Shown here in pieces: positions 12,644 to 64,000 of a stretch of 64,000 nucleotides of DNA. Location: assembly GCA_050287085.1 (NCBI GenBank), contig JBNKBE010000016.1:64001-128000 (forward strand). Direction: 5' to 3'. The position numbers were made by a program, and so were the translations under genes. The DNA comes from Polyangiaceae bacterium (GTDB taxonomy: Bacteria > Myxococcota_A > Polyangia > Polyangiales > Polyangiaceae). The notes under the pieces were generated by a model. The model was given only the letters and a program-made list of their open reading frames with translations, was not told the DNA's origin and ran no database searches. Every line of letters starts with the position of its first letter. Position 1 is the stretch's first letter.

Positions 12644-12648
12644 ATGAA

Positions 12649-43711: not shown

Positions 43712-44593
43712 TCAGCGTTCCGCGAGAGCAGCCTCGGCGCAGCGCGATAGCCAGGCTTCCAGCCGAAGGTCGGCAGCGCCGCGGTCTCGTCGTTCGCGCG
43801 CCCGTGCCAGTAGCGCCTGCGCCTTACGCTTCCGCGCCAATGCACGTCCGCCCGTCGCTGACCACAACGCTTCTAGCTCAGAATCCGTCAATTCACGGAA
43901 CGCCCCGATGGCCAACTCGTCGCAACGGAGCGGTCCAACCTGTTTTCGGTGTAGATGGAGCAGTCGCAGATTGAGCGCGCGACACATCCTTCGAATTTGG
44001 CGGTTCTTTCCTTGGTCGAGCACGAGCTCCACCTCGCCATAGTGAGGCGATAGTGAGACCACCCGTGCAGCCTTCGCTCCATCGTAACGCTGATCGGTCC
44101 GGCAGGTCAGCGCGGCTATTCGCGGGTCGTCATTTGTGAGTTCCTCATTTAGCCAAAGCCAATAGGTCTTATCGGTATGATGCTCTGGTCGCAGAATAGC
44201 GCTCGATAGATCCCCGTCTGTAGTAAACAACAGCAAGCCAGTGGTGTCGCGATCCAGGCGTCCTACGGGAAACGTACCGTCTGGCATCTGTCGTAGCCAA
44301 TCTCTGAGGTCACGGCCGCGTCCAGGTTCACATGACGACGATGTTGTTGCAGGCGGCTTGTTGAGCATGGCGACGAACTCGCGGGTTCGCGGGGTAACAT
44401 GCTTGCCATCGAGAAGAACTTGATCCTGCTCGAAGATGAGGCTGTCCAACTCTGCTCCTTGCTGTGGTGACTGAGCCTCCCATTGGACGCAAACGCGTCC
44501 GGCCGCAAAGGCTTCAGCGCTTTCCTCGACGGATAGGGAGGTACTGTCACTCAGGTATTTGGCAAGACGTCGTGGCAGGTACATGAGAGTCAC
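43712..44593 (-). CDS. RNA pseudouridine synthase (RsuA/RluB/E/F family)
   Basis: 'LNKP', catalytic 'VGRLDRDTTGLLLFTTDG', and 'GKNRQIRRM'. Confidence 0.93.
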   Translation of the reverse strand: MTLMYLPRRLAKYLSDSTSLSVEESAEAFAAGRVCVQWEAQSPQQGAELDSLIFEQDQVLLDGKHVTPRTREFVAMLNKPPATTSSSCEPGRGRDLRDWLRQMPDGTFPVGRLDRDTTGLLLFTTDGDLSSAILRPEHHTDKTYWLWLNEELTNDDPRIAALTCRTDQRYDGAKAARVVSLSPHYGEVELVLDQGKNRQIRRMCRALNLRLLHLHRKQVGPLRCDELAIGAFRELTDSELEALWSATGGRALARKRKAQALLARARERRDRGAADLRLEAWLSRCAEAALAER

Positions 44594-47022: not shown

Positions 47023-47208
47023 GGGACCATTGTGCCGAGGTCAGGGGTTCCCCGCAACGCAGGCGCTTCGGAAACGCCCTGACCAGGGCGGGATCGTGGG
47101 AGGACGGACCTGGGAACAACGCAATGACGACACTTGCGTCGGTCAGCTCGCCTGGGAGCGCAGTCGGATCGGTTGCTCCGGCTCTCTGGATTTGTTCTTC
47201 TCGGCCCA

Positions 47209-50073
47209 ATGACATACGCCGTATTGCGCAGCGCCGAGGCACTGGTTCGCCATCTCGAAGCTGGACATCCCCTGGCTGGCTGTATTCTTCAGGGCCTGAA
47301 TCTGACGGTGATAGCACCTACGTTGTTGGCTCGGGACGTAAGAGAGGCGGTCTTTCTAGGCTGTACGTTGACGGCTGAGCAACAAGCCCAGCTCACCGGT
47401 CGTGGGGCTCTCGTGTTTCCGGACTTGCGCAAAGGGCGCCCCTACAATCCCGCACGCGCCGATCTGTACACCTACGACGAGTTGATGCACGGGTTTTCGG
47501 CGAAGCATCCGGGTAGCGTGTTGGATACGTTGGATGCGCACATCCATGCCCACTTCCAGCGGCATCGACGCTATGGGTCCCATCCCATCATTGAGACGTT
47601 GGCTCAGCGCCTACACGATCATGCGATCGATGAAGCCCTCGCTCGGCTCTTGGCACGACCTGAGGCTCAGCGGGTAGTGGGGGTAATGGGGGGCCACTCG
47701 CTGCTTCGCGGTAGTGCTCTGTACCAGCAGGTCGCACGACTCGGGTATCAACTTGCGCGCTCTGGGTATCTCGTCGCAACGGGTGGAGGCCCCGGCGCCA
47801 TGGAGGCCGCGAACCTGGGGGCTTGGATGTCATGTTATGACGAAGTTGCGCTCGATACGGCCTTGGGGATTCTTGCGCGGGCAACGGACTACCATACCCA
47901 TGACTACGTTGTTTGGGCTCTTTCCGCGCGCGCCGCGTTCCCAGAGGGAGCGCCTAGTCTCGCGATCCCTACCTGGTTCTACGGTCATGAGCCGAGCAAT
48001 CCGTTTGCGTCGTACATAGCCAAGTATTTTTCCAACAGCCTGCGAGAGGACGGCTTGCTCGCGATAGCAAAACACGGCGTCGTCTACACGCCCGGCAGCG
48101 CTGGTACCATCCAGGAGGTGTTCATGGATGCCACGCAGAACCACTACGGTACCTTTGACGTGGTAAGTCCGATGGTCTTCTTTGATGAGACCGAATGGAG
48201 TCGCTATCCCGTGTTGGAGCTATTGCAGAAGCTCGCCGGCGATCGCGCGTATGCTCGGACGATCTACCAGACGAGCCGCGTGGCGGAGGCGGTTGATTTC
48301 ATTCGGTCTCACCCTCCCGAGCACTTCGACCCGAGTGAGTTCCTCGGTATCGTGCACGCCAGCGATCACGGCCCGGTCTACGCTGACGCTCTGAATGCTG
48401 TGCGCCGGCTCGAACCGACGGAGTCTGCAGCGGTGCCCCCGTTAGGAAGCTACGTCGTGGCACGCCCCTCGCCTAGCAATGTCTCGTCGGCGGAGCTGGT
48501 GCGGGTTCTTGCTCGCAGCGACTCTGGCCTCGCGGATCTGTATGAGTTGCTGGCTGCCAACGGACATACGCCCTGCTTCTCTACGGCAGTACGGAGGGAG
48601 GTCGAGGGCTGGCTCGCTAAGCCCGATATCGACGCGCCAGACCTTCTGGACCTCGAGGCGCTCGCTTTTGTTACCGTGGATGGCGAGTCTAGCAAAGATC
48701 TAGATCAAGCCTTGTATTTGCGGAAGCGGGAGGGCGGCGGACTGACTGTCTACTACGCGCTCGCTGACGCCAGTCACTACGTGCGTCCGGGGTCGGCACT
48801 GTTTGCAGAAGCGATGCACCGAGCCGCCAGCTACTACCTCCCGAGCGTCATGGTGCCGATGTTGCCAAGAGAGTTGTCTGAGGGGCTCGTGTCGTTGAAC
48901 CCAGAGGTATCACGCCGCGCGGTCGTCTTCGAGATGCAATTGGACGACATGGCGGAGGTTGTGAGCTCGCGCGTCCTGCGAGCACGCGTCCGCAGTCGTG
49001 CCAAATTGAGCTTCTCAGGCGTACAGGCCTACTACGATGAACCGGACTCAAGCGATATTGTCGATCCGGCCATCAGGTGTAGCCTTGACTTGCTTAGGAC
49101 TTTTGGTGAGCTCCGTCTGCGACGTTCCGGAGAACGCGATATCGTGCGCTATCGGCGCGTTGAGCTGCAAGTAGAGCTGCCGAATCGCAGTTGTCGCGGG
49201 TTCTTGGTAAACGAGGCGATCCGTCACCCGGTTGAGCGATACAATGAGCAGCTTTCGCTGCTATGCAACGAACAAGGTGCCACGCTGCTGCAGCGTGCGA
49301 GCCAGGATCCGCACGTAGAACCCATTTTTCGTGTGCACCCAGAGCCAGAGGCAAAAAGCTTCGAGGCATTTCGCTCGCTAACTGAGGCAGTGGCTGACGC
49401 GCACGGTTTGGATGCTCGCTGGCGCTGGCGCCGTGAACAGACATTGGCCGACTACCTCGCAGCGCTTCCGGAGGAACCGCGCTCAGTGGCGCAGGCTCTA
49501 CACCGTCAGGCAGTGATGGTGAACGTGGGTTCGGTCTTTCAGCAGGCACCCGGGGGCCACTACGGCGTCGGGGCGGACGTCTACGCGCGCTTCAGTGCTC
49601 CGATGCGTGAGATCGTCGGTGTGTATCTGCATCGGGAACTCGTCGAAGCGGTTACGGGGCAGACCCGCGCTGACGCGGAGCTTCGAGCCGAGGTGATCGA
49701 GCGCGCCAACGCAGCAAGACAACTACAGAGGCGGCTTACCAACGGTTCAAACCTTCTGGTACTAGATCAGATATTTCGAGGGGCACAGGTTGAGGATCGT
49801 ACACTTTGCGCAACGATCGTGGGGCTGACAGAAAGCAAAGCCTATGTCACATTGTCTCCTCAGCCCGTGGACGCTAAGGTGCACCTGCGTGATCACAATC
49901 GCTCGGCCGGTGATACTTTGCGTTTGACTAGCGACCGTTGCGGGCTTGTTGATGAGGCCGGAACCCTTCGGTTTCGTTTGGGGGATGAGGTAGGTATTCG
50001 AGTCGTGGAACACGAATCCGCCAGCCACCACTGGCTGCTCGTGTTGCTGCCTGGTCCCCTTCATACGCAATAG
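47209..50073 (+). CDS. Fusion of a LOG-family (SLOG) nucleotide-binding domain and an RNB (RNase II/R) domain
   Basis: N-half: 'GVMGGH', 'TGGGPGAMEAANLG', 'KYFSNSLREDGL', 'PGSAGTIQEVF'. C-half: 'TVDGESSKDLDQA', 'SYYLP....PMLPRELSEGLVSL', 'GHYGVGADVYARFSAPMR'. One uninterrupted ORF. Confidence 0.85.
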   Translation: MTYAVLRSAEALVRHLEAGHPLAGCILQGLNLTVIAPTLLARDVREAVFLGCTLTAEQQAQLTGRGALVFPDLRKGRPYNPARADLYTYDELMHGFSAKHPGSVLDTLDAHIHAHFQRHRRYGSHPIIETLAQRLHDHAIDEALARLLARPEAQRVVGVMGGHSLLRGSALYQQVARLGYQLARSGYLVATGGGPGAMEAANLGAWMSCYDEVALDTALGILARATDYHTHDYVVWALSARAAFPEGAPSLAIPTWFYGHEPSNPFASYIAKYFSNSLREDGLLAIAKHGVVYTPGSAGTIQEVFMDATQNHYGTFDVVSPMVFFDETEWSRYPVLELLQKLAGDRAYARTIYQTSRVAEAVDFIRSHPPEHFDPSEFLGIVHASDHGPVYADALNAVRRLEPTESAAVPPLGSYVVARPSPSNVSSAELVRVLARSDSGLADLYELLAANGHTPCFSTAVRREVEGWLAKPDIDAPDLLDLEALAFVTVDGESSKDLDQALYLRKREGGGLTVYYALADASHYVRPGSALFAEAMHRAASYYLPSVMVPMLPRELSEGLVSLNPEVSRRAVVFEMQLDDMAEVVSSRVLRARVRSRAKLSFSGVQAYYDEPDSSDIVDPAIRCSLDLLRTFGELRLRRSGERDIVRYRRVELQVELPNRSCRGFLVNEAIRHPVERYNEQLSLLCNEQGATLLQRASQDPHVEPIFRVHPEPEAKSFEAFRSLTEAVADAHGLDARWRWRREQTLADYLAALPEEPRSVAQALHRQAVMVNVGSVFQQAPGGHYGVGADVYARFSAPMREIVGVYLHRELVEAVTGQTRADAELRAEVIERANAARQLQRRLTNGSNLLVLDQIFRGAQVEDRTLCATIVGLTESKAYVTLSPQPVDAKVHLRDHNRSAGDTLRLTSDRCGLVDEAGTLRFRLGDEVGIRVVEHESASHHWLLVLLPGPLHTQ

Positions 50074-50339: not shown

Positions 50340-51638
50340 ATGGAACCAGGAGCTCTAGAGGGCGGCTCCCGCCCCATTGGCACGTTGGATTTCCGCAAGC
50401 TCGTCCATCGAGAAATCGCGGATCTGGAAACGCTCCGAGCGCAGTTGCAGCTCGCCATTCAGCTTGAGATGTCGACGGTGCCAGCTTATCTAGTGGCACT
50501 TTACTCGATTGTGGACAAGAGCAGTGAGGCGTACCAGCTCACCCGCAGCGTCGTAGTCGAGGAAATGCTGCATGTGAATGTGGCGGCTAACTTGTTGGTC
50601 GCCATTGGAGGGGTACCGTATTTCACGGGACCCTATAGCCCGAGCTACCCGACGTATCTCCCAGGGGCCAATCCGCAGCGCACGCCCTACATCGCTTTGC
50701 TGCCCGCATCGACTGCGCTCTATTCCGATGTGTTCATGGCGATTGAACGACCGGCGCCGTTCAAAGCGCCCGCACAAGGGGCTCGCTACGATTCGATCGC
50801 GCAGTTCTACAAGGCGATCGACGAAGGATTGGAGAACGTGGTCGAACGATACGGCCCCGCTGAGGTGTTCAAATCGCAGCCTGGCTATTGTCAGCGGACG
50901 GACTTCTACATCGGCAAGGGCGGCGGGCGGCCATTTCTGGTTCGCGATCTGAAGACAGCAAAGCTTGCCATCCTGGAGATCGTGCAACAAGGGGAAGGCG
51001 CGGTATCTATTGATGAGCCGCTGCAACCCGAGCAACACTGGGGAACCTACAACGCCTATGGGCAGCGGATCGACGGCACCTACGGACCGATACTCGGCAA
51101 ACCGCGGGAGTTGGCTCACTACTTCAAGTTTCAGCGTATCGCCCAGGGACTTGCGCCGCTCGGAGCCGTTTATCCCTTGGTTTCCAATCCCGACGCGAGC
51201 TCCTACACGAATCCTCAGGCGAAGGAGCTTTCACGGCTATTCGATCAAGCTTTTAGCGTGCTGCTAAAGGCGCTCGAACGTTCTTTCCGCGACGCGGACG
51301 GGGACGCCTATTTCAAGGTCACGCTGCCATTGATGCACGAGGCTCTTCCGACCTACGCGGGCGCGCTGATGCAGACGGCCGCGTTGAAAGAGGCCTCCTC
51401 TGCGGTAGGACCGAATGCGTTACCGGCCTTTCGCTACGTGCCTGAAGCCACGCTGAGTGCGCTGCTGGCGGCGACCCGGGCCAAGTCCGGCGTGGTCTCC
51501 GAGCCGTCGGCGAAGACCGCCTTCGCCGCCGCGGCATCAGCAGTCGAGCCTGCTGCTGGAGTCCCTGGCTTCGCATCACTTGTAGAACGGCTGGTTCTTG
51601 CCGAAGGCGTGTCGCGCACACACGACCTGTCTCTATAG
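50340..51638 (+). CDS. Ferritin-like domain protein (VioB/RebD-associated ferritin-like family)
   Basis: 'LQLAIQLEMSTVPAYLVALYSI', 'VVVEEMLH..AANLL.AIGG', 'IVQQGEG', 'AHYFKF'. GGAGG ribosome-binding site upstream. Confidence 0.82.
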   Translation: MEPGALEGGSRPIGTLDFRKLVHREIADLETLRAQLQLAIQLEMSTVPAYLVALYSIVDKSSEAYQLTRSVVVEEMLHVNVAANLLVAIGGVPYFTGPYSPSYPTYLPGANPQRTPYIALLPASTALYSDVFMAIERPAPFKAPAQGARYDSIAQFYKAIDEGLENVVERYGPAEVFKSQPGYCQRTDFYIGKGGGRPFLVRDLKTAKLAILEIVQQGEGAVSIDEPLQPEQHWGTYNAYGQRIDGTYGPILGKPRELAHYFKFQRIAQGLAPLGAVYPLVSNPDASSYTNPQAKELSRLFDQAFSVLLKALERSFRDADGDAYFKVTLPLMHEALPTYAGALMQTAALKEASSAVGPNALPAFRYVPEATLSALLAATRAKSGVVSEPSAKTAFAAAASAVEPAAGVPGFASLVERLVLAEGVSRTHDLSL

Positions 51639-51663
51639 ATCTCTAGCTTGAACGGATGACATC

Positions 51664-53412
51664 ATGAGTGACAGCTACAAGGTATATCCGAGTATTGGCA
51701 TTGCCCGGGTGGGCAACAGTCAGGACGCGTTCTATGTAGGACCGGAATCAGCTGCAGCGCTGCCGACATTGCCCGACGGCAAGCCATTTGGACCTGAAGA
51801 CTTTCGGGACGGCAGCGGGGATCTGAAGCGGCAGGCGGCGCGCTTTCGCGTCTACCGGACGAGAGCAGATGGCAGCGCCGAGGAGATTACACTCCAGACT
51901 CCTGGCGTGCTGGAAATCCGCTGGACGGTCCATCTGGCCAACAAGAAGGCCGGTTGGTACGAATTTCAGACCAATAAGGGTGAACAGGGATACGCTTCGA
52001 ATCATCCGCTTCGCAACGCAAGTGTTGCTAGCGATCAGCGGCACACGTTGTTCATCGACCCGGGGCCGCGGACGGTCGTAGCTAAGCCAGGTGGAGATGA
52101 GCGGGCCGAGTTTTCCAGGGGCACGATACCCAAGGACTACCCTGGCAGCTTCCCGCCGCCAGATACCAAGCCGTTTAGCATCGATACGCTCGGTCAGCTC
52201 CGCTCGGAAAGTTCCGGCGCCTTGCTGGTGCTCGGAGGACTAGGGCGCTCGGGATCTAGTCGCGCACCCGAGATCTCGAACTACGCAAACAACGACGACT
52301 GGTGGGATGACACGTCTGACGGTCCGGTGCAGGCGACGATCGTGTTCAGTGACGGCCGTGAGGTAAGCGTGGAGCCGGCGTGGGTCCTAGTAACGCCGCC
52401 GGCGTATGCGCCTCAGATTCTGAACCTCGTCACCCTCTACGACACGATCTTCGACGTTGCCGTTCGCAGTCTGGGTGCGCGCCCCGATTGGTACGAGAAT
52501 GGACTGTGGAAGCGCGGTGCGGACGGATACAAGCCGAACTACAGAACGGAAATACGTCCCATCCTGGAGCGGGGTGAACATTACCCGTGGGTGGCTGCCA
52601 TTCCGCCCAAGGCGCATCGCTTCGACTATGAGCGCCTCGGCACTGCGGACCCCGCACTCGATGGATTTCGAAAGTACTACCTGGACGTCCTGCGCGGCCC
52701 GAACGAAGAGAACAATCTGATCTCGACCAAGGGTGCCACCATGATGCCCTACCTGGCGGGCGATGATTGCATAGGTGCGACGGATAAGACGCAGTCGAAG
52801 TATCTGAAGCTAACGGATACCCAGTACTTTCTGCTTCAGCAGTGGGCAGACGGACACTTCGTGAACGAGCCGGCCGAGCCGAGGCATCCTGGGGAGATGT
52901 TGTCGCAGGGGGTCCTGGAGAACTGCGTGGGCGGCGCGTTTTCGCCAGGCATCGAAATGACGTGGGTGAGTCGCTACCCCGAGCTCTATTGCGAGCCCTT
53001 GCGCTTGCACATGGCGAAGGTCGTTCCAGCTCCGCTGAGCAACGGTCTCGACCTGAAGCGCGGTTTGGAGCCTGGGGACGTGACCAAGTTCATGGCGGTT
53101 CCCTGGCAGGCCGACTTCAACGAGTGCTCTGCTCAGCCGATCGGAGAGCGCATTCTATGGTGGTGGCCCGCCCAGCGCCCAGCCATGGTGTACATCGAAG
53201 CGGCCCAGCCCAAGGATGGTCCGTCGCCGACGACTGGACAGCAGGTGCCATGGATTGGCACCGCCGACGACCAAAACGCTGACAACTACATCGCCTTTGC
53301 AAATGACCTGGAGATGGTAGAAAGCTGGGACCGCTTGGGGTTCGTTTACAACGTTGGTAGCGAAGCTGAGCCGCGCTTCATCGAGGTTGCCCGCACACTC
53401 AAGCGAGAATGA
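51664..53412 (+). CDS. LodA/GoxA family CTQ-dependent amino-acid oxidase
   Basis: 'YPSIGIARVGNS', 'KRQAARFR', 'HLANKKA', 'DDTSDGPV', 'GGAFSPGIE', 'PWQADFNEC' (CTQ Cys), 'WWPAQRP', 'W..LGFV' (CTQ Trp). Confidence 0.93.
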   Translation: MSDSYKVYPSIGIARVGNSQDAFYVGPESAAALPTLPDGKPFGPEDFRDGSGDLKRQAARFRVYRTRADGSAEEITLQTPGVLEIRWTVHLANKKAGWYEFQTNKGEQGYASNHPLRNASVASDQRHTLFIDPGPRTVVAKPGGDERAEFSRGTIPKDYPGSFPPPDTKPFSIDTLGQLRSESSGALLVLGGLGRSGSSRAPEISNYANNDDWWDDTSDGPVQATIVFSDGREVSVEPAWVLVTPPAYAPQILNLVTLYDTIFDVAVRSLGARPDWYENGLWKRGADGYKPNYRTEIRPILERGEHYPWVAAIPPKAHRFDYERLGTADPALDGFRKYYLDVLRGPNEENNLISTKGATMMPYLAGDDCIGATDKTQSKYLKLTDTQYFLLQQWADGHFVNEPAEPRHPGEMLSQGVLENCVGGAFSPGIEMTWVSRYPELYCEPLRLHMAKVVPAPLSNGLDLKRGLEPGDVTKFMAVPWQADFNECSAQPIGERILWWWPAQRPAMVYIEAAQPKDGPSPTTGQQVPWIGTADDQNADNYIAFANDLEMVESWDRLGFVYNVGSEAEPRFIEVARTLKRE

Positions 53413-54521
53413 CGGAGCTGACCACTCAGGTCTTGGTCGTCGGCGCGGGACCTGCGGGTTGCGCTACTGCCCTATCCTTGCTGCGCGCGGGGATTTCCGA
53501 GGTCCTATTGGTATCGGCCGACGGATTCGAGCAGGGGGGCGCCGGCGACGGCGTTCCGCCACATTTCGGTGCGCTGCTCGAAGCTTTGGGTCTGGATGAG
53601 CCGCCGGAGGCTATCGACTGTCATGGCAGTTACGTGTGGTGGGGCAGCGAAGGGCTTCGCGTGGAAGACCATTGGTCTTCCATGCGCGGGCTGTCTCGGC
53701 ATGTCGCTCGAGCGCAGTTTGATCCCTGGCTTCGCCGTCAAGTGGCGAAGCGCGGTGCGCAACTCCGCTGCGACAACAAGGTTGTAGCGGTAGAGAGTCG
53801 GAGGCGTGGTGGGTGGCTTGTCCAGATGCGAGACAAGACGGGCGAGTCCTTGCGGGTGGCCGCAAGCTTCGTCGTCGACGCTACCGGGCGACGAGCGTGG
53901 CTGGCGCGGCGACTTGGTGCGCGGCTGCACGGCCATGATCGTCTACTTGCGTCCTACTTGGAGTGTGGGTTGAGGCCGGGGCCACTGGCGCGCTACTCGC
54001 ACCTCCAAGCAGCCCCCTTCGGCTACCTATATGCCGGAGCCCTACCGAAGGCACGAGTTCTGCTCAGCATCTTCTTCGATGCCGACGGTTTGCCGTCGGA
54101 GCTCAGCCCTTCTCGCGTTGCTGCTGCCAGTGAACTGATGAAGATCGCTGTGCGATACTGCCCGCACCTCGAGGCGCAGCTTCAGCCATTGCCCGTCTCG
54201 ACGGTGCGGGTGCAATCTGCCCGTTCTCAACATCTCGACCGGTGCGGCGGCGAAAATTGGCTGGCCGTGGGAGATGCCGCCATGGCCTTCGATCCCCTGT
54301 CCGCCTCTGGTATCTACAATGCCATGGCAGATGGCTTGACGGCGGGACTGGCCATCGCGCGTGCTGGGGTTCGGGGCATCGTTGTGAACGATGCCCAAGG
54401 GGAGCGGCTGGTATCGTGCTGGAAGCGCTATCAGATGGAGTTGCGACAACACTACCGAGCAGAGCGGCGCTGGCGCGCTCATCCCTTCTGGGCCCGACGG
54501 CATGAGACGGCGGCATGCTAG
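53409..54521 (+). CDS. LodB/GoxB-like FAD-dependent oxidoreductase (CTQ maturation)
   Basis: 'VVGAGPAG', 'VVDATGR', 'AVGDAAMAFDPLSASGI', and the LodB-typical end 'YRAERRWRAHPFWARR'. ATGA overlap with the lodA-like gene. Confidence 0.88.
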   Translation: MTELTTQVLVVGAGPAGCATALSLLRAGISEVLLVSADGFEQGGAGDGVPPHFGALLEALGLDEPPEAIDCHGSYVWWGSEGLRVEDHWSSMRGLSRHVARAQFDPWLRRQVAKRGAQLRCDNKVVAVESRRRGGWLVQMRDKTGESLRVAASFVVDATGRRAWLARRLGARLHGHDRLLASYLECGLRPGPLARYSHLQAAPFGYLYAGALPKARVLLSIFFDADGLPSELSPSRVAAASELMKIAVRYCPHLEAQLQPLPVSTVRVQSARSQHLDRCGGENWLAVGDAAMAFDPLSASGIYNAMADGLTAGLAIARAGVRGIVVNDAQGERLVSCWKRYQMELRQHYRAERRWRAHPFWARRHETAAC

Positions 54522-55993
54522 ACGTCAGTGCGGCGAAGTTGCCTGAACTGCGAGACGTTCGCGCCGTCATCGGTGGAGAGTTGGCGACGGCCGCGGAAGG
54601 GGGCCGCTACCTAGTTACGAGTCCAGTAACAGGGAAAGGTTGGACGGAGGTGCCTGACTGCACCGCAGTCGACGTGGACCGTGCGGTGCGAGCCGCGTCG
54701 CGCTGGGTGAGGCAGAATTCGGTTCCCTTGGCACCGAAGGACCGCGCGGGGCTATTGTTCAAACTCGCGGCTTTGATGGAGCGCGACGGCGAACTGCTCG
54801 CGTGTCTGGAGACTTTCGACAGTGGTAAGACTATCAGTGCGACCCGCGGAATTGACGTTCCCGCAGCAATCGCATGCGTTCGCTTCTACGCGGAGCTAGT
54901 GGACAAGGTGTTCGATCGGATTGCCCCGGCCGCCAGTGGCACGCTGCCGTGTATCCGCCGCTATCCGGTCGGCGTGGTGGCGGCCATCCTGCCGTGGAAC
55001 TACCCACTCTTGATGGCAGTCTGGAAGCTTGCGCCAGCCCTTGCCGCGGGTAACGCGGTCATTCTCAAACCCTCCCCCAATACGCCGCTTACCACGCTCT
55101 GGCTCGCGCAATTGGCGCTGGAAGCAGGAGCTGGCCCAGGTCAGGTACAGGCCGTCTCGGGGCGTTCGGCGGCGCTGGGTGAAGCGCTTGGAGCTCACTC
55201 GGGTGTGCACATGATCGCCCTGACTGGCTCCACGGCTACGGCGAAGCACTTCTACGCCTATGCGGCCCGCAGCTCTCTCAAAAAGCTGAGTTTGGAGTGC
55301 GGGGGCAAGAGCCCTCACGTCGTGCTCGCCAGCTGTGACCAGCTACCAGAAGCGGCCCGCGCTGTGGCGCGAGGCGTGTTTGCCAATCAGGGCGCGGTAT
55401 GCAATGCCGGCTCCCGGTTGATCGTTGAGCGCTCGATAGCCGATTCCTTCTTGCATTTGGTGCTAGAGGAAGCCCAGCGCTTTCAACCAAGGGATCCGCG
55501 TACTCCGGGTGAGGGCAACGGTGCACTGATCGACGAGACCCATGCGATCACGATTGAACGCCAGCTGAGGCTGGCGCGAGCCCAGGGTGCGCAGGTTTTG
55601 GCAGGAGGCGAACGAACTCTCCAGACGCTGGGGGGAGCCTACCTCACCCCGGCGATCGTCACGAACGTCGACCACGAGGCGACGATCGCTCGCGAAGAGG
55701 TATTCGGACCAGTGCTAAGTGTCATCTGTGCTGACGACCCCGAGCACGCCTTGCAGTTGGCCAATGACACAGACTTTGGTCTGGCCGCTGCGGTGTGGAC
55801 AGCGGAGCTGCGCACGGCCCATACCTTTGCCGAGCGACTGAAGGCCGGAATCGTTTGGGTCAACTGCTTCGACAGAGGGGCGATGGCGATGCCCTTTGGC
55901 GGCTGGTTCGAGTCTGGGTTCGATGCCGACAAGGGCATCGAGGCTTTCGACAAGTACTGTCGTACCAAGGCCGTGTGGGTGAACTATGCCTGA
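54515..55993 (+). CDS. Aldehyde dehydrogenase (PuuC-like)
   Basis: 'PWNYP', 'LTGST', 'LECGGKSP', 'NQGAVCNAGSR', 'EEVFGP', 'PFGG'. Confidence 0.95.
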   Translation: MLDVSAAKLPELRDVRAVIGGELATAAEGGRYLVTSPVTGKGWTEVPDCTAVDVDRAVRAASRWVRQNSVPLAPKDRAGLLFKLAALMERDGELLACLETFDSGKTISATRGIDVPAAIACVRFYAELVDKVFDRIAPAASGTLPCIRRYPVGVVAAILPWNYPLLMAVWKLAPALAAGNAVILKPSPNTPLTTLWLAQLALEAGAGPGQVQAVSGRSAALGEALGAHSGVHMIALTGSTATAKHFYAYAARSSLKKLSLECGGKSPHVVLASCDQLPEAARAVARGVFANQGAVCNAGSRLIVERSIADSFLHLVLEEAQRFQPRDPRTPGEGNGALIDETHAITIERQLRLARAQGAQVLAGGERTLQTLGGAYLTPAIVTNVDHEATIAREEVFGPVLSVICADDPEHALQLANDTDFGLAAAVWTAELRTAHTFAERLKAGIVWVNCFDRGAMAMPFGGWFESGFDADKGIEAFDKYCRTKAVWVNYA

Positions 55994-57266
55994 ACGGCTG
56001 GGGCCCTTTCGCGTCACAGAACTTCTGGAGGCAGCGAAACACTTTGGAACGCCCCTCTTCGCCTATGACGTTGGGACTGTGGAGGCCAACTACCGGAGCT
56101 TGCGCGCAGCCATTCCGGAGCGGGTGGCGATTCACTATGCACTCAAGGCTAACGGTAGCGCCGCGCTGCTCCAGATTCTCAGGCGCTGCGGAGCCAACGT
56201 AGATGTCGCCTCGCCTGGTGAGCTGCACCTGGCTAGGCTGCTTGGCTTTGCTTCCGATGAGGTTGTGTACACAGCGGCGGGGCGAAGCGACTCGGAGATA
56301 GAGTTTGCGCTCGACCCTGCGGTTGGCTTGCTGGTCATTGAAGCGTTGGACGAGGCAGAGGCACTTTCCCGATTGGCTCAGGAGCGTGGACTTGTTCAGG
56401 ATATCTTGCTGCGAGTGCGTTTGCCGGTGGTCGAGGATGCGGACGGAATGCTCATCGTTCAGAAGCGGTCCAAGTTCGGTGTTCGTCCCGAGGAGTTGCT
56501 GCACGTAGTCACCAGACTTCAGCTTTTGCCTGGGATCCGGTTGCGCGGGCTGCACGCCAATCAGCACACCGCCTGTTTGGACGAGCGGGTTCACGAACGC
56601 GTGTATCATTCTCTCATGGACGAAGCGCTTGGGCTCCTGGCGCGTTCAGTGGCCATCGACACTGTCGACTTCGGGGGTGGGTTGGGGGTTTCCTACGGCC
56701 AGGAGCCAGGCCTGGATCTTCAGATGATTGGCCGCGCTCTCACACGGCAAGTCGAGCGCGCGCCTCGAGGTTGGCGCTTTCTAATCGAACCGGGTCGTTT
56801 CCTCGTCGCGAACGCCGGTGCATACGTCTTTCGAGTGCTGTCCGCGAAGCGGGAGGCCTCTCGGCAGGTACTCGTCACAGAGGGCGGAATTCACCAGCTA
56901 TTTCGCCTAGGCCTTCGCGATAAGAATAAGCTGCTGCAAGTGCTTAGTCCGGCGGGTCACGAGTTAATAGCCTCCAGTGTTTGGGGGCCTCTGCTGTCGT
57001 CGGATGACGAGCTCGTGTCCGACATGCCGCTGCCCGAACTGGAGCGCGGGGCGTTATTGGCGATTCCGAACTGCGGCGCATATGCGTTCAGCCATAGCCT
57101 GAGCAGGTTCTGCTACTACCCAACGCCGGTAGAGCTTCTGCGTTGCCATGAGAGCTGGCACTGCGTACGTGAAAGAGGCTGCTCTGACGATGTCGTGCAA
57201 GGGCAGCACTGGCATCAACAGGATCGCCCACTCGCCTTTGGCACGTCAGGAAGGAGCAAATCGTGA
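55986..57266 (+). CDS. PLP-dependent fold-type III enzyme (diaminopimelate/ornithine decarboxylase family), atypical active site
   Basis: 'YALKAN', 'DVASPGE', 'SKFG', 'DFGGG', 'IEPGRFLV', 'GAY'. The usual GPxC motif reads GPLL. Confidence 0.88.
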   Translation: MPERLGPFRVTELLEAAKHFGTPLFAYDVGTVEANYRSLRAAIPERVAIHYALKANGSAALLQILRRCGANVDVASPGELHLARLLGFASDEVVYTAAGRSDSEIEFALDPAVGLLVIEALDEAEALSRLAQERGLVQDILLRVRLPVVEDADGMLIVQKRSKFGVRPEELLHVVTRLQLLPGIRLRGLHANQHTACLDERVHERVYHSLMDEALGLLARSVAIDTVDFGGGLGVSYGQEPGLDLQMIGRALTRQVERAPRGWRFLIEPGRFLVANAGAYVFRVLSAKREASRQVLVTEGGIHQLFRLGLRDKNKLLQVLSPAGHELIASSVWGPLLSSDDELVSDMPLPELERGALLAIPNCGAYAFSHSLSRFCYYPTPVELLRCHESWHCVRERGCSDDVVQGQHWHQQDRPLAFGTSGRSKS

Positions 57267-58201
57267 AAGTGGTGTTTTTCGGATTTCAGACGTGGGGGTA
57301 CGAAAGTCTGCGCCCACTACTCACCCATCCGCATCATCAAGTGAGTCTGGTGGTTACCCACCCGGAAAGCTCACATCCATACGAATGCATTTGGAACGAC
57401 TCGGTGGCGGAGTTGGCTCGCGGCCGCGACATCGAAGTGGTCACCGCACGCGAGGGGGATGAGCCTGCGGTACTAGCCGCGCTGGCCAGGCATCCCGCGG
57501 ACGTTCTGCTCGCCTCCGACTGGCGCTCGCACCTTTCGACCCGAGTCTTGAGCCACTTCCCCCGCGGCGGGATAAACGTGCACGACGGCTTGTTGCCTCG
57601 CTACGGCGGCTTTGCTCCCATCAATTGGGCCATTGCCAATGGTGAACCAGAGATCGGGGTGACGGCGCACGAGATCAGCGACGGCTTCGACCTCGGTCCC
57701 ATCATCGTTCAGAGACGGCTAAGCGTGGGTCCGGACGAGACCGCCACGCAGGTAGCACGAAGAGTATTCGGCGTTTGCAGGGAGATCTGTGTGGACGCAT
57801 TGCAGTGCATCGATAGGACAGACTTCAGACCTCGGCCGCAGGATGCCGCCGAGGCTACGTTCTTCCACAAACGCGGCGAGCGCGAAGGGCGCATCGACTG
57901 GACGTGGCCTGCTCGGCGCGTCTACGACTTGATTCGAGCCCAATCGGATCCCTATCCAAACGCGCACGCTCGCTATCGTGGTAGGCGCTTGCTCGTCAAG
58001 CGAGCTCAGTTTCCGACACGCGCGTATTGCGGAACGCCGGGCAGAGTGCTGCAGCGTTCGCAAGCTGGCGCGCTGGTGCTGTGTGGCAAGGGGCGCGATA
58101 CTCACAACCAGGGATTGTGGTTGACTGAGGTTCAAGCTTCAGAAGGCGGCGTTGCCGTCCCAGCGACACATCTACTGCAGCCTGGCAGCCACCTTGACTA
58201 G
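57263..58201 (+). CDS. N10-formyl-THF-dependent formyltransferase (CchA/FxbA-like subfamily)
   Basis: 'VFFGFQTWG', 'VVTHP.S.HPYE.IW.DSVAELA', 'NVHDGLLPRYGGFAP..WA', 'ATFFHKR', 'RAQSDPYPNA'. Confidence 0.88.
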   Translation: MKVVFFGFQTWGYESLRPLLTHPHHQVSLVVTHPESSHPYECIWNDSVAELARGRDIEVVTAREGDEPAVLAALARHPADVLLASDWRSHLSTRVLSHFPRGGINVHDGLLPRYGGFAPINWAIANGEPEIGVTAHEISDGFDLGPIIVQRRLSVGPDETATQVARRVFGVCREICVDALQCIDRTDFRPRPQDAAEATFFHKRGEREGRIDWTWPARRVYDLIRAQSDPYPNAHARYRGRRLLVKRAQFPTRAYCGTPGRVLQRSQAGALVLCGKGRDTHNQGLWLTEVQASEGGVAVPATHLLQPGSHLD

Positions 58202-58243
58202 TCGGGGACAGCAAATATCCGTCGCAAGGGAAGAGGAGCATCT

Positions 58244-59437
58244 ATGAAAATCGTTCTAGCCTACTCGGGAGGGCTCGACACCTCGGTCGCGCTCCGCTGG
58301 CTGCAGCAAAAGTACGAAGCGGACGTCATTGCCTATTGCGTCAATCTTGGTCAGCTTGATGATCTGAGGGTGGTTGAGCGGCGAGCTCGCGCCATTGGAG
58401 CCGCAGAGGTTGTCATCGACGACAAGCGGGGAACCTACCTCAGAGAGTTTGCTTTCCCGGCGCTCCGCGCGTCTGCTCGCTACGAGGGGCGGTACCTGAT
58501 GGCGGCACCTCTAGGTCGACCATTGATCGCGCGGGGGCTGGTCGAGACCGCTCATCGCTTCGGGTGTGAAGCTGTGGCCCACGGATCTACAGGCAAGGGC
58601 AATGACCAGGTGCGCTTCTACACCGGGGTTGTGGCGCACGACCCCACGCTGAGGGTATTGGCCCCGTGCATGGAGTGGGAGCTTGGCTCCCGACAGGAGG
58701 AACTGCAGTTCGCGGAGGCACATGGCATCGAAGTGGACGCAAGCCCGCGCGCGCCGTATAGCAAGGACGGCAGCCTATGGGGTTCCAGTACCGAGTGCGG
58801 TATGCTGGACGATCCGAATCAAGCCCCTACGCCAGACGTCTTTCAGATGACGGCGGATCCGCACACGGCACCCTCGGAGGGTCAACATATCAGCGTTGGC
58901 TTTCGCCGAGGTCTACCGATATCGGTGAACGGCCGTGAGTTGGAGCCGATAGAACTCGTATTGACCCTGAATGAGCTCGCAGGGCGACACGGCATCGGCC
59001 GGGTGGACATCGTGGAAGACAGCCTTCTAGGTTACAAGTCGAGGGCGATATACGAAAGCCCTGGCGCTACCCTGCTGCACTTCGCCCATCGTGAGCTGGA
59101 AAGCTTATGTGTCGAACGAGACGCATTGCGCTTCAAGCAGCGTGTCGCAGATCGCTACGCGGAGCTAGTCTATGAGGGTAAGTGGTTCTCGCCCCTACGA
59201 GAAGCTCTGGACGGATTCGTCGACGTCACGCAACGCTCGGTTAACGGTGAGGTTGAGATGCTAGTGCGCGGTGGTCACATCAAAGTAGTAGGGAGACGCA
59301 GCACGACCTCATTGCTACGTCCAGAGCTGGTCACGCACGACGGCACCGATGAGTTCGAGCACGGACTGGCCGAGGGCTTTTCCTACGTGTGGTCGATGCC
59401 CGAACGAATTCGCGCAAAGAATCGGCGCGGCGTCTAG
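58244..59437 (+). CDS. argG: Argininosuccinate synthase family protein (divergent; possibly a pathway-specific paralog)
   Basis: 'LAYSGGLDTS', 'HGSTGKGNDQVRF', 'GIGRVDIVE', 'KSRAIYESPG', 'LVYEGKWFSP'. Confidence 0.88.
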   Translation: MKIVLAYSGGLDTSVALRWLQQKYEADVIAYCVNLGQLDDLRVVERRARAIGAAEVVIDDKRGTYLREFAFPALRASARYEGRYLMAAPLGRPLIARGLVETAHRFGCEAVAHGSTGKGNDQVRFYTGVVAHDPTLRVLAPCMEWELGSRQEELQFAEAHGIEVDASPRAPYSKDGSLWGSSTECGMLDDPNQAPTPDVFQMTADPHTAPSEGQHISVGFRRGLPISVNGRELEPIELVLTLNELAGRHGIGRVDIVEDSLLGYKSRAIYESPGATLLHFAHRELESLCVERDALRFKQRVADRYAELVYEGKWFSPLREALDGFVDVTQRSVNGEVEMLVRGGHIKVVGRRSTTSLLRPELVTHDGTDEFEHGLAEGFSYVWSMPERIRAKNRRGV

Positions 59438-59851: not shown

Positions 59852-60865
59852 ATGAACCGTAAGCGCATGCAGGGCGAGTTCACCCATGGCGGACGCCGAC
59901 GGCTGCCGCCCCGCCTCAGCCAGAATGAGGCTGCTCTTCCCGCGGCGCACCCACCTGACGCTTCCCGGTTCTCTCATTCGGCCTGGGCGCGGGCTAGAAG
60001 GCTAGGAGAACAGTACCACGCTCAATGGGTCTTGCTCACGCTCGTATCCGGAGCGACTGCATGTGTGGTCGCAACGAGCGTCTTCTATCATGAGCGGATC
60101 TTCTGGTTGGCACTCGTCTTCTGCTGTTCCTTTATTGCCGGAGTGTATCTACTCAATTGGCTACTGGAGACAACCCACGACTTCATCAACAGTCCGTCTC
60201 GTCTACAAGTCGTCAAGCACAAGGCGATGTACTGGGGCTTGGCCTGCTCTTGCTACGTTCTGAGTCTGGTAGTCGTTGTCTCTAGAGGAAGAGTTAACCT
60301 GGCTCTGATATTTCTCTTTGCGATGAGCGTCATGTATTCGACCCCGTCGCTGCCCGTTGTGCGAAAGGGGACGTTGGTCTTTCTGCGACTCAAGGATGTG
60401 ACCTTTCTGAAGAGCTTACTGGTCGCGTTGTGCTTTCCTTTGCTTAGTTTTGAAAGCGTACGGCTCTTCACATCCGCCAACATGATGGAAGCTCCGGGAA
60501 TCCTCTGGTTCTATGCGGGCTTTGCGATAACTACATTTCTTGCGACGGTTTACGACGACATGCTCGACATTCCGGGTGACACTGAAGCAGGAGTTGTTAC
60601 TTTGCCCATTCTGTTGGGGGCAGCGAATACGCGGCGCTTTCTTGTGGGCACCACCGCGATGTGGGTGTCGGTTATCGCCTTCTTCTACGGTCAGGGTATG
60701 ATTGTTCACCGACATCTTCTGCCTTTGCTGCTGCAGGCGGCATTTCCCCTGACCTGGCCCGCGATACACCGAGCCTGGCCCAAGTCGCGGCTTGCGCTCG
60801 ATGTTTCCATCGAAGGGGTCTTCTGGATGACGGCCTTGGCGTTGGTGCTGTCCGGCGGCGGATGA
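59852..60865 (+). CDS. UbiA-family prenyltransferase (start uncertain)
   Basis: Multiple transmembrane segments, 'YLLN....THD.IN.P.R', 'YS.P...RLKD', and the Asp-rich 'DDMLDIPGDTEAGVVTLP..LG'. Confidence 0.82.
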   Translation: MNRKRMQGEFTHGGRRRLPPRLSQNEAALPAAHPPDASRFSHSAWARARRLGEQYHAQWVLLTLVSGATACVVATSVFYHERIFWLALVFCCSFIAGVYLLNWLLETTHDFINSPSRLQVVKHKAMYWGLACSCYVLSLVVVVSRGRVNLALIFLFAMSVMYSTPSLPVVRKGTLVFLRLKDVTFLKSLLVALCFPLLSFESVRLFTSANMMEAPGILWFYAGFAITTFLATVYDDMLDIPGDTEAGVVTLPILLGAANTRRFLVGTTAMWVSVIAFFYGQGMIVHRHLLPLLLQAAFPLTWPAIHRAWPKSRLALDVSIEGVFWMTALALVLSGGG

Positions 60866-61572
60866 GCTCCGAGCCCGCTCGGTAGCCGATGTCCAGAGCC
60901 ACGCGGTCGGAGGAAGCGGCATGCGCCAAGCGACATGGCCAAGGCGTTGCTGTCGTAGGTTGGCGTCGCTGTCGCCAACTTCCCCACTTGCTACGTGGGA
61001 CCCATGGTAGTTGTTGTCAGGAGAGCAGCATGCGGTCGCGCAGCGACTTGTGGCGTAGGGCGAGAGCTTTCCGGCCATCGACGGGCGCGGAGGCGGGGAA
61101 ACTCTGTCAGAAGGTTGCTCACTTCGCGTACGACGTTCGGGGCCGGGTCCAAACTGGACCACAGTCTCGTCTTGCGCCAGCCCCGCGGCGAGATTTCTTT
61201 GGTCGCGAGTGACCGGTTTTCGTCCTAGAAATGAGCGTGAAAGAGGCGACGCCCTTGAGCGGCCGGCTCTCGTGCAATTGGGGAGAAGACGAGACCTAAG
61301 TTGCGGATAAGTTGGAAAAATGGTCTAGGGCGTCAGTTGTGGTAGAGGGCCTGGTGAGGCTGCGGGAGAGGTAAGCGATAGCCGGCTGATGGCTGGGCGC
61401 GGAGACGCCTGCGGTGTGTGTCCTACATTCCGGAGTTGAACCAGCTCCAGAAATGCGAGCATGCGTTCGCCATGGGTCCCCGCGGCAGTGGTGAAAGTTT
61501 GTGGCCTGGGTACTGGCGGGGTGGTAGCACACTGCTCTGGGTGCAGTGCCGCATCCCATTGTGGGGGTCCAG

Positions 61573-64000
61573 ATGAATAGACGTTCGAATGCTTTAGCGT
61601 GCTGCAGCACGCTACTGTTGCTCATATCTTGTTCAGGACGGATCGAGGGACCGTCCCCCGCGTTGCTCTCCGAGGAGGAGGGCGAGTCCTTGGCGACGAC
61701 CATCGTGTGTCGCGACCAGCTTAGCACGGAGGTCGTGGTCAGCGGCGACGGCTTCTCCCCGATTCCGGTCAACATTCCCAATGGCCCCAAGGTTGCTTTG
61801 CCCAGCATCACGCTGTCGCGCACATCCGAGCTCAATGGGGACCCGGTAGACACGCCGGTAGATGTACTGTTCAGCGGCACGCCCGACGATCGCACCAACA
61901 TCAAGTGGCTCACCTGGCAGAGCCAGAAGCAGATGACGTTCACGGTAAACCAGTCGCTGTCCGTGGATGGGGACTCTTCCGTTTTGCCAGAAGGGATCCA
62001 CGACATCCTGGTTAGAAATCCAGATGATGAGAAGACCCAGCAGACGGGCGTACTTGCCGTCGTGAGCAAGCCAGTGCTTGAAGCGCCCTCGCCCTCGATT
62101 ACATGCCTAGCGCAAGGTGCGCGGGAGCTTACGCTCAACGGCGCCACGTTTCTCGACATCGACGGTGACCTCGTCGGCTTCGAGGTAGCGGGCGAGGCCA
62201 CCCCCTTTGTTCCCAGTGCCCTGAGAAACTGTACGAAAATCGCTCGCACTGGTCTCAACGCTCGTACGTGCGAATCGGCGACCGTGACGCTCGGCAAGGA
62301 TTCCGTGGCGACCGGCTATCATCGCGTCAACGTGCACAATCCGGAAACGGCAGCTTGTCGCAGCGAAGAGGAGATCCTTCTCCGTGTTGTCCCACCGCCG
62401 TCAATCAGCCGCGTGGTGCCCCCTCTTGCCTGCGTGGCCGAGAGTGAGCGCATGTTCACTATTGAAGGCAAAGACTATCTCGAGATCGACGGTGCCCTGC
62501 CATCACTCACGGTTGGGGGTACCGCATTTGACGTGCTGACCGCCTCGGGATGCAAGACGCTTCCGACGATGGGCCACAGTGTTCGCCGCTGTACGGAGCT
62601 CTCCTTCACGGTGCCTCAGGATGGGCTGCCGGTGGGGCAGCCCGAAGTGGTGGTCACCAATCCGGATCCTGCGGGCTGCGAGGCCTCGAACGCGGTGGCT
62701 TTGACCATTGTACCACCTCCGAGCATCGAGGAGGTGGTTCCGGATGCGATCTGCCTCGATGAGAGCATGCGTTCGGTCGAAGTGAATGGCGAAGGCTTCC
62801 TGGAAGTAGATGGTGTGGTCCCTGCGGTGCTTGTGGCGGACGTCGAGTTGCTAGCGAGCGCCGTTTCGGTGTCGGGTTGTGAGACGATCCCCGTCGATGG
62901 CATGAAGGTCCGTCGCTGCGACACCTTGCGGCTGTCCATTCCGAAGAACGCGCTTGACCCGACGGTGGCCGACATATGGGTTACCAACCCGCAGCCTGCC
63001 GGGTGTTCTGACTTAGCGCCAGACGCGTTGGCCATCTTGGGAGCACCGGAAGTGCTGTCGGCTGCGCCGCCCTTGATCTGTACCGACGACGTGGAGCGTC
63101 AGCTGGTCTTGTCGGGCGTCGACTTTGTCAGGGTGGGTGACACGTTTCCCACGGTTACCATCGACGGCAGAGACGTTAACGTAGATGCGGCAGACGGATG
63201 CAGGGACGTCCCAGTGGCGGGTGGCGGTCTACAGTCGTGCGACACGCTGACCGTCACCGTGCCAAAGGGCGCACTCTCCGCCGGTCAGAACGACGTCCGG
63301 GTTTCCAACCCAGAGCCGGTGGGGTGTTCGGGAGATGCGGCTGTGTTGACCACGCCGCCCACTGTCACATTGACGTCAGCAGAGCCTGGCAACGTGTGCA
63401 CGACCAGTGGAGCGCTGAGCGTGAGCTTCACGGGCACCGGTTTCCTCAGGGTTGACGGTAACGACTTCAGCGTATTCGTCGAAGGGACCGAGGTCGTGCC
63501 CACGGCGATTACCGGATGCAACTCGCTCGAAGTCGCGGGAATGGACGTGAAAAGCTGCACCGGCTTCCAAATTCCTTTCGAGCCGAGCGGCATGTCGGTC
63601 GGCGACGTGGAGGTCGTGGTCAGCAACCCAGCGCCGAGCAGCTGCGAGGTCTCGGCCTCCAACGTATTCCGGCTCGTCGGGCCGCCGACGATTGCGGCGG
63701 TCGTTCCGAGCAACGTCTGTTCCGATGTGAGCACGACTCTGGCACTGACGGGCACAGGATTCGTTCCCGGAGCCATGGTACTGGCGGGCGGCGTCGCCGC
63801 TGACGCGGTGGTTGTCACCAGCGCAACGTCGCTCGAAGCTACTTGGGATTCCGGGCTTGCTGCCGGCACCCACGATGTGACGGTGAACAACGATGCGGGC
63901 GGCACGTGCGCTACGACCGTGAGCCGCGCACTAGTGGTCGATCCGACGCCTCTGGTCTTCTTCGTGGATCCACCGGTGCTCTACAACGGGATCCAAGTCG
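61573..64000 (+). CDS. Large lipoprotein with tandem Cys-containing IPT/TIG-like Ig repeats; runs off the window end
   Basis: Manual translation from ATG 61573 (MNRRSNALACCSTLLLLIS-C); no stop seen in the stretches read through to 64000. About 107-aa repeats ending V(T/S/H)NP.P..C and starting P.I..V.P...C. Absent from the ORF track because it has no stop in the window. Confidence 0.85.
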   Translation, partial: MNRRSNALACCSTLLLLISCSGRIEGPSPALLSEEEGESLATTIVCRDQLSTEVVVSGDGFSPIPVNIPNGPKVALPSITLSRTSELNGDPVDTPVDVLFSGTPDDRTNIKWLTWQSQKQMTFTVNQSLSVDGDSSVLPEGIHDILVRNPDDEKTQQTGVLAVVSKPVLEAPSPSITCLAQGARELTLNGATFLDIDGDLVGFEVAGEATPFVPSALRNCTKIARTGLNARTCESATVTLGKDSVATGYHRVNVHNPETAACRSEEEILLRVVPPPSISRVVPPLACVAESERMFTIEGKDYLEIDGALPSLTVGGTAFDVLTASGCKTLPTMGHSVRRCTELSFTVPQDGLPVGQPEVVVTNPDPAGCEASNAVALTIVPPPSIEEVVPDAICLDESMRSVEVNGEGFLEVDGVVPAVLVADVELLASAVSVSGCETIPVDGMKVRRCDTLRLSIPKNALDPTVADIWVTNPQPAGCSDLAPDALAILGAPEVLSAAPPLICTDDVERQLVLSGVDFVRVGDTFPTVTIDGRDVNVDAADGCRDVPVAGGGLQSCDTLTVTVPKGALSAGQNDVRVSNPEPVGCSGDAAVLTTPPTVTLTSAEPGNVCTTSGALSVSFTGTGFLRVDGNDFSVFVEGTEVVPTAITGCNSLEVAGMDVKSCTGFQIPFEPSGMSVGDVEVVVSNPAPSSCEVSASNVFRLVGPPTIAAVVPSNVCSDVSTTLALTGTGFVPGAMVLAGGVAADAVVVTSATSLEATWDSGLAAGTHDVTVNNDAGGTCATTVSRALVVDPTPLVFFVDPPVLYNGIQV

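Follow-up and report, generated by a model that had tools for sequence, protein, structure and literature searches.

A putative amino-acid-tailoring gene cluster in a Polyangiaceae genome combines a widespread CTQ oxidase trio with a rare PLP-formyltransferase-ArgG-like core

Introduction

What joins seven adjacent genes, each from a recognizable enzyme family, into one operon around an oxidase whose relatives are mainly known as producers of hydrogen peroxide? The question is raised by positions 50340 to 59437 of a 64,000-nucleotide stretch of a Polyangiaceae genome (hereafter the window; G000:C16:64001-128000, where G000 is the host genome). The operon encodes, in order, a ferritin-like protein, a LodA-family oxidase with the residues for a cysteine tryptophylquinone (CTQ) cofactor, a LodB-like flavoprotein, an aldehyde dehydrogenase (ALDH), a pyridoxal 5'-phosphate (PLP) enzyme (PLP*), a formyltransferase (FMT*) and a second argininosuccinate-synthase-like protein (ArgG*). 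An earlier note, made from the sequence alone, had placed the oxidase at the centre of an amino-acid-derived metabolite pathway, while the available part of PMC4417212 treats LodA-family oxidases mainly as H2O2-producing antimicrobial enzymes and leaves the substrate of its group IC unassigned. Our comparisons argue for a real and undescribed cluster type, of an amino-acid-tailoring kind that is independent of nonribosomal peptide synthetases (NRPS) and polyketide synthases (PKS). The operon is composed of two modules, namely a widespread trio of ferritin-like protein, group IC LodA and LodB, and a rare mobile core of PLP*, FMT* and ArgG*.

A conserved three-gene core and its linkage to LodA

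The seven-gene set was found nowhere besides the window among the genomes and loci searched, and the conserved gene order that the earlier note had proposed to look for was matched in none of them. The conserved centre is instead plp-fmt-argG, a position that the earlier note had given to the oxidase. Indeed, in G569 (the one genome among 382 of the family with an FMT* at E<=1e-45), these genes form a three-gene unit in the same order, with 35, 54 and 60% identity to the window PLP, FMT and ArgG proteins and without a LodA within 20 kb; no LodA, ALDH or ferritin-like gene was found in the 40 kb at this core. In locus L185 of G569 (8093-16017), the genes downstream of lodA-lodB encode a protein of 734 aa and an amidohydrolase-like protein, next to a short open reading frame (ORF) ending in Cys, a set that by eye we take to be of the YcaO/TOMM type.

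The core recurs in 4/401 genomes of a second family (G1277, G1271, G1205 and G1178; loci L177-L180), which we take to be Pseudomonadaceae from a match to the oprI primer. The order there is plp-fmt-lodA-lodB with argG* divergent next to plp, and the PLP, FMT and ArgG proteins are 37-39, 46-47 and 58-59% identical to those of the window. In L177, lodA-lodB come straight after fmt (gaps of 69 and -11 bp), and LodA and PLP* co-occur in the same 4/21 genomes of that genus. Note that the four genomes are kin sharing one inherited island, and were counted as one event.

A LodA/LodB pair is therefore joined to the core in two of the three lineages seen in full, and the tie between oxidase and pathway genes, which had been claimed from the window, holds in a second phylum. 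This linkage in two lineages is the strongest evidence of a functional tie. The two pairs are not orthologous: the Pseudomonadaceae cluster LodA scores 834 bits, over the LodA cut-off, keeps Cys448 and Lys530, and is 38% identical to the window LodA, and a single clade uniting the two was rejected (approximately unbiased test, p 6.9e-54, 25 rows). The CTQ oxidase was thus probably recruited to the core twice, although one replacement could also explain the pattern. In G1277, about 44 bp separate the divergent plp and argG* starts (L177 10605-10650), a spacing that is tight for two promoters and suggests an inversion inside the cluster.

Outside these lineages, the top PLP and FMT matches in Salsipaludibacter albus have consecutive accessions, which is evidence for PLP-FMT adjacency only, and PLP and FMT matches lie on equally sized contigs in two further records; none of the 120 best LodA matches was on a contig sized like those of the best PLP/FMT matches. 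FMT* at E<=1e-40 was found in 0/300 genomes of the order, and 7/60 relatives searched for LodA had a distant LodA only. The ArgG* motif pattern gave 26 other matches in 400 genomes of the phylum (14 with loci, which were not ArgG, and 12 without loci), and for P0007 there was no clade match in 151 genomes of the order of G929, nor in the 6-genome family. A metagenome scan with the PLP alignment (80 of 404 loci kept) returned no locus with FMT or LodA and four with an ArgG at 47-48%; L033, the only one of these four that was checked, has ordinary motifs. Viral contigs held three ordinary ArgG only, and no core cluster was seen among the plasmid matches opened.

The aldehyde dehydrogenase does not belong to this conserved core. 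Its identification stood, since PDB and profile matches place it nearest to the KauB/PuuC omega-substituted aminoaldehyde dehydrogenases (463 bits on the PuuC model, cut-off 850). The gene is missing at L106-L108 and L177-L180 and clustered only in G000 (5/6 clusters lack it), so oxidation by LodA followed by ALDH, as suggested earlier, cannot be the general route.

The trio of ferritin-like protein, LodA and LodB

In 8/9 GTDB loci from several phyla and in plasmid locus L164, the gene immediately 5' of lodA encodes a ferritin-like protein; the ninth GTDB locus has a true LodA and lacks this gene. No ferritin-like homolog was found in the four Pseudomonadaceae cluster genomes. This gene, previously counted as a pathway member, is therefore better described as a companion of group IC LodA. 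Its product keeps the EEMxH and QQGEG motifs in 6/6 aligned sequences, and the available part of PMC4417212 reports ferritin-like neighbours for fungi only. The downstream genes (ALDH, PLP, FMT, ArgG) occur in 0/9 GTDB LodA loci, of which L002, L003 and L006 end early downstream, and FMT* in 0/5 of the LodA-locus genomes searched whole, which indicates that the trio is a free-standing unit.

The window LodA retains the cofactor and catalytic residues, with C488, W501 and D484 aligned to C516, W581 and D512 of 3weu, and the CTQ Cys/Trp and catalytic Asp are kept in 119/119 LodA relatives. Regarding the substrate-related residues of LodA, which include Lys530, Cys448, Gln519 and Tyr211 in the part of PMC10851380 available, Gln491 and Tyr207 are the kept equivalents of Gln519 and Tyr211 (alignment to 3weu/2ymw), whereas Ser427 replaces Cys448 and the segment bearing Lys530 has no counterpart. 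The protein scores 395.9 bits, under the NF038172 LodA cut-off of 600 (EC 1.4.3.20), and also fails to reach the GoxA cut-off. It is 55% identical to P0327, a Magnetococcus protein of 608 aa and thus of the same length as Mmc1_0290, a group IC member according to a supplement row of PMC4417212. For the group IC enzyme of Chromobacterium violaceum, section 9 of the same source describes H2O2 production with no lysine oxidase activity detected.

The lodB-like gene follows directly 3' of lodA with a 4-bp ATGA overlap. The CTQ residues, the Gln519/Tyr211 equivalents and the downstream lodB are features shared with lodAB/goxAB of Marinomonas mediterranea and with group IC (CV3268 and Mmc1_0290, as far as PMC4417212 is available). 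In contrast to lodAB/goxAB, the window LodA falls under both cut-offs with its changes at Lys530 and Cys448, and its gene has a ferritin-like gene before it and four metabolic genes after lodB.

Within the trios, the window LodB is only 31-37% identical to the other LodBs, whereas four proteobacterial trio LodBs are 42-52% alike and trio LodAs 50-60%; the divergence of the window LodB would mean that this maturase has changed faster or has been replaced. Across phyla (L001-L008, L164), the association of a VioB-type domain with an amino-acid oxidase resembles VioA/VioB. We presume that CV3268-9 adjoin the violacein genes, for which no confirming paper was found.

Altered active sites in the core enzymes

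PLP* has the alanine racemase (AR) fold, with BtrK as its best PDB match, and keeps the PLP-binding Lys (K54), the Gly loop (G230-232), EPGR (E268/R271) and GAY (Y366). With 226 bits against the LysA cut-off of 297.9, it is not the diaminopimelate decarboxylase LysA. In a tree of 123 sequences it belongs to a clade of 11 (support 0.97), in which the catalytic Cys of the family (Cys360 of ornithine decarboxylase) is replaced, by Leu337 in PLP*. This Cys is lost in 14/14 clade members (three added to the 11) and present in 111/112 others, while near the GAY motif Cys363 occurs in 13/14 and His370 in 14/14 clade members. According to the available parts of the sources, the Cys is conserved in all AR-fold decarboxylases (PMC7857480) and protonates the reaction intermediate (PMC3253432), and loss of the proton donor in another PLP fold turns decarboxylases into decarboxylase-oxidases (bioRxiv 10.1101/2024.06.04.597157). 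Compared with the BtrK/SbnH/FslC(FigC)/MccE decarboxylases as described in part of PMC7857480, PLP* has the same fold, Lys54, Arg143, EPGR and GAY, but it lacks the conserved Cys, and neither a carrier protein nor a synthetase of the NRPS-independent siderophore (NIS) type is encoded nearby.

FMT* keeps Asn105, His107 and Asp143, the Asn/His/Asp set with the catalytic role known from PurN-type formyltransferases. It falls under the cut-offs for methionyl-tRNA formyltransferase (132 vs 201.5) and ArnA (161 vs 777), and the tree places it in a separate clade, sister to actinobacterial siderophore-cluster formyltransferases, with relatives whose genes adjoin SidA/IucD/PvdA monooxygenase genes in siderophore clusters. 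The coelichelin-type hydroxyornithine formyltransferases are 42-44% identical to FMT* and share with it the catalytic residues and the motifs GxQTWG, THP..YE.IW.DSV and FFHKR; in contrast to their clusters, that of FMT* has no SidA/IucD/PvdA monooxygenase, NRPS, NIS or iron transporter gene. No full-length N-hydroxylase match (PF13434) was found in G000 or G569. A siderophore cluster was considered and rejected, as there is no N-hydroxylase, assembly enzyme or receptor.

ArgG* passes the ArgG cut-off, aligns 1:1 with 1j1z, and its predicted model gives a TM score of 0.91 to 1kh1. The ATP and Asp loops are kept, as are nine citrulline/aspartate contacts (Y84, T116, N120, D121, R124, S182, E184, E258 and Y270; contact residues taken from the available part of PMC13289927, with human numbering transferred via motif and alignment end points). 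Four substitutions stand out, N177S, R260S, R143M and E126Y. Serine occupies both 177 and 260 in 7/7 ArgG* clade members aligned, whereas among 149 representatives Asn177 is found in 95% of 146 and Arg260 in 83% of 143 with a residue there. In the human ASS1 growth scan, as far as PMC13289927 is available, R272S has a value of 0.49 and N184T 0.97, N184S being without a value, and S92P, T91A, G90A and N271D have 0.91, 1.03, 0.95 and 0.97.

A quick tree places the ArgG* clade as sister to plasmid paralogs that include the ArgG of Rhodococcus fascians pFiD188 (SH-aLRT 99). These paralogs (L111 7974-9173, L112 8001-9173 and L131 9001-10188) carry an AAPL motif and E126F/Y and keep Asn177/Arg260; one is stand-alone and one lies in the R. 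fascians cluster. The latter (L131), which we take to be the att locus, has the order argH-argG-formyltransferase-...-argJ, so that its ArgG also adjoins a formyltransferase, but this enzyme is short (30% identity over 92 aa), the ArgG keeps Asn177 and Arg260, and the cluster has argH, argJ and a LysE exporter and no PLP fold III or LodA gene. The product of that locus is described as an autoregulatory compound in the available part of PMC12130866. Another relative is ArtA, an argininosuccinate-synthetase-like nitrile synthetase (PDB 9leh/9lei) with the same fold as ArgG* (TM 0.85), which in the part of PMC13060819 available offers a precedent for using ATP to activate an amide that is not citrulline; ArtA is only 24% identical, whereas ArgG* is 44-48% identical to true ArgG and keeps the aspartate loop.

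None of the three core genes replaces a housekeeping gene. The earlier note had considered that the fmt-, argG- and lysA-like genes might be the sole copies, which is ruled out by LysA on C12 (with the usual GPMCES motif), Fmt on C6, and another ArgG together with ArgH on C4 of G000. Each of 17/17 congeners has one ArgG, of the C4 type and 29-34% identical to ArgG*, showing that ArgG* is not the arginine-pathway copy of the genome. A second ArgG is also present in G569 and in all four Pseudomonadaceae cluster genomes.

Proposed pathway and alternative explanations

We propose that the operon is an NRPS/PKS-independent cluster for a small Lys- or Orn-type derivative that would be N-formylated, would contain or pass through a LodA-derived aldehyde and would receive aspartate through ArgG*; we see the chances of this proposal as evenly balanced. 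The steps are numbered for convenience and imply no reaction order. In step 1, LodB, whose function is predicted by homology, would mature the CTQ of LodA, for which the residues are present. In step 2, LodA would oxidize the omega-amine of a basic L-amino acid, probably not lysine for the window enzyme, to an aldehyde or cyclic imine with release of NH3 and H2O2, a chemistry suggested by its homologs. In step 3, PLP* would decarboxylate an amino acid, and without the protonating Cys the carbanion may be diverted: it could form a C-C bond with the aldehyde or imine from LodA, or the reaction could end in oxidative deamination. In step 4, FMT*, with its catalytic residues in place, would N-formylate a side-chain amine with 10-formyl-tetrahydrofolate (THF). 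In step 5, ArgG* would adenylate an amino acid at the carbonyl of its omega-N-acyl group (formyl or carbamoyl) and condense it with aspartate, after which housekeeping ArgH, acting in trans, may remove fumarate to leave an amidine. The ferritin-like protein would serve the IC oxidase in maturation or peroxide handling, and ALDH would clear or oxidize the aldehyde.

A bolder form of this proposal, unlikely in our estimation, is that FMT* and ArgG* together activate the N-formyl group to give a formamidine (with Asp) or, by an ArtA-like dehydration, an isonitrile, while PLP* builds a C-C bond to the LodA aldehyde. A formamidine route is possible, but Ser182/Glu184 of ArgG*, which align to two cited citrulline-contact residues, fit an ordinary citrulline-type substrate equally well. 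If formamide activation and C-C coupling both took place, LodA-family enzymes would be biosynthetic catalysts, recruited twice independently.

Several observations weigh against the proposed pathway. The LodA of G569 lies 1.7 Mb from the core in another context, showing that the oxidase is not obligatory in cis, and only three independent lineages have been seen in full. The window LodA shows no pathway-specific adaptation, its active site being like that of the IC trios that stand alone, and the two core-linked LodAs probably differ in substrate, as Lys530/Cys448 are kept in one and lost in the other. Cys363/His370 of PLP* may replace the lost Cys and restore normal chemistry. Since its changes are individually tolerated in human ASS1, ArgG* may be a normal argininosuccinate synthase. 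Finally, none of the six clusters seen contains an exporter or regulator, which argues against the secretion of an antimetabolite or siderophore.

The main rival to the proposed pathway is that ArgG* serves self-resistance, i.e., that a formylated mimic of citrulline or aspartate, made by PLP*, FMT* and LodA, inhibits argininosuccinate synthase and that ArgG* is an insensitive copy of this target. It would account for a duplicated housekeeping gene in the cluster with nine contacts kept and two pocket substitutions in 7/7 clade members, for the 49-103% growth of those equivalent human variants that have values, and for the divergent orientation of argG* to the other genes in L177-L180. However, an exporter is found in none of the six clusters, compared with the LysE translocator of the pFiD188 cluster, and the wider ArgG clade has stand-alone plasmid copies, which leaves self-resistance a doubtful explanation. 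If ArgG* were nevertheless a resistance copy, it would mark a natural inhibitor of arginine synthesis.

We consider it distinctly less probable that ArgG* only supplies argininosuccinate or arginine and that LodA/LodB are a separate source of H2O2 with an antimicrobial, biofilm or oxidant role. The IC LodA of Chromobacterium violaceum makes H2O2 in biofilms (PMC4417212, section 9), the two linked LodA types share no products for certain except H2O2 and NH3, G569 has no LodA in cis, and the sister ArgG adjoins argH and argJ in a supply-like set. By contrast, no core cluster contains argH, and the ALDH gene, lying between lodB and plp, is translationally coupled to both (7- and 8-bp overlaps), which suggests a flux of carbon from the aldehyde.

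It is improbable that the cluster serves the catabolism or detoxification of a modified amino acid, such as N-formyl or N-hydroxy-formyl Lys/Orn, in which FMT* would catalyse the reverse reaction and the freed amine would be degraded by LodA and ALDH. An oxidase with a KauB/PuuC-type ALDH is a catabolic pairing, the absence of an exporter would agree with it, and FMT relatives occur within siderophore clusters, but ArgG*, which consumes ATP, does not fit into such a scheme, importer and regulator genes are absent, and five of the six clusters do without ALDH. Least credible of all is that a LodA trio and housekeeping-like genes came together by chance and share no function, which the uniqueness of the seven-gene set and the lack of the core in the nine GTDB LodA loci (and of FMT* in the five such genomes searched whole) would allow, but which disagrees with the conservation of the core across phyla and its linkage, in Pseudomonadaceae, to a LodA unrelated to that of the window, with the housekeeping copies elsewhere, and with seven intact frames whose codon use lies in the genome range, even if plp reaches only the 3rd percentile.

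Novelty and implications

The literature searched, with most subscription journals outside it, held no description of the cluster. Judged from profiles, alignments and trees, each part has a known family, but PLP* lacks the feature that defines its family, and LodA and FMT* fall outside the characterised groups nearest to them. Because genes for NRPS, PKS or NIS enzymes are absent and its members receive the names lysA, fmt and argG, routine annotation overlooks the cluster. Three enzyme subfamilies whose active sites have changed are represented in the core, including an AR-fold PLP clade without the supposedly universal Cys, and the pathway context offers a direct way to the substrate of group IC LodA. 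In addition, the cluster is easy to test, as other genomes carry compact versions of three and five genes.

Organization of the operon and neighbouring genes

Re-checking the ORFs of the window confirmed the earlier description exactly, i.e., seven intact genes on the + strand in the order and at the coordinates first noted, with four overlaps and two short gaps (junctions of 25, -4, -7, -8, -4 and 42 bp in operon order). The features are listed in Table 1. Open spaces of 266 and 414 bp flank the operon, and the spacing suggests that its genes are co-transcribed. Pfam/NCBIfam matches were Ferritin-like PF12902, LodA_N+LodA_C, FAD/LodB-like, Aldedh, Orn_Arg_deC_N, Formyl_trans_N+C and Arginosuc_synth.

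Table 1. Genes of the operon, with positions in the window
Feature	Position	Strand	Evidence
Ferritin-like protein (PF12902, VioB-related domain)	50340..51638	+	Pfam E 1.4e-42
LodA-family CTQ oxidase, group IC	51664..53412	+	Alignment to 3weu/2ymw; 395.9 bits
LodB/GoxB/QhpG-like flavoprotein, predicted CTQ maturase	53409..54521	+	NF038171 195 bits, cut-off 400
Aldehyde dehydrogenase, KauB/PuuC type, accessory	54515..55993	+	KauB 6b4r E 3.4e-129
PLP*, alanine-racemase-fold (fold III), BtrK-like	55986..57266	+	BtrK E 3.7e-49
FMT*, predicted 10-formyl-THF-dependent N-formyltransferase	57263..58201	+	Domains, motifs, tree
ArgG*, second argininosuccinate-synthase-like protein	58244..59437	+	496 bits, cut-off 334

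Purine-rich ribosome-binding sites lie upstream of the ferritin-like, fmt and argG genes. The GC content at third codon positions and the codon adaptation of all seven genes are within the range of G000, with the three core genes low (3rd to 14th percentile, plp being at the 3rd). At the operon, a sigma-70-like promoter scan gave no hit (2.4 expected by chance), a terminator scan none that was convincing, and an Rfam scan no match to a structured RNA; a PADLOC scan of six of the seven proteins matched no defence system.

Beyond argG*, a UbiA-family prenyltransferase gene (59852-60865, +) follows after the 414-bp space; it has no paralog in G000, a low codon adaptation (2nd percentile), and was not seen adjoining the core in other genomes. 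Further downstream, a long Cys-rich repeat protein (61546-64000, +) runs past the end of the window and reaches 1573 aa on C16. On the upstream side, an 810-aa protein with a PPDK_N domain is encoded at 44590-47022 (-), followed by a 979-aa ORF at 47134-50073 (+) in which a SLOG/LOG-family half is fused to an RNB (RNase II/R) domain. In 5/17 congeners, the two halves are separate adjacent genes on opposite strands, so the fusion implies an inversion.

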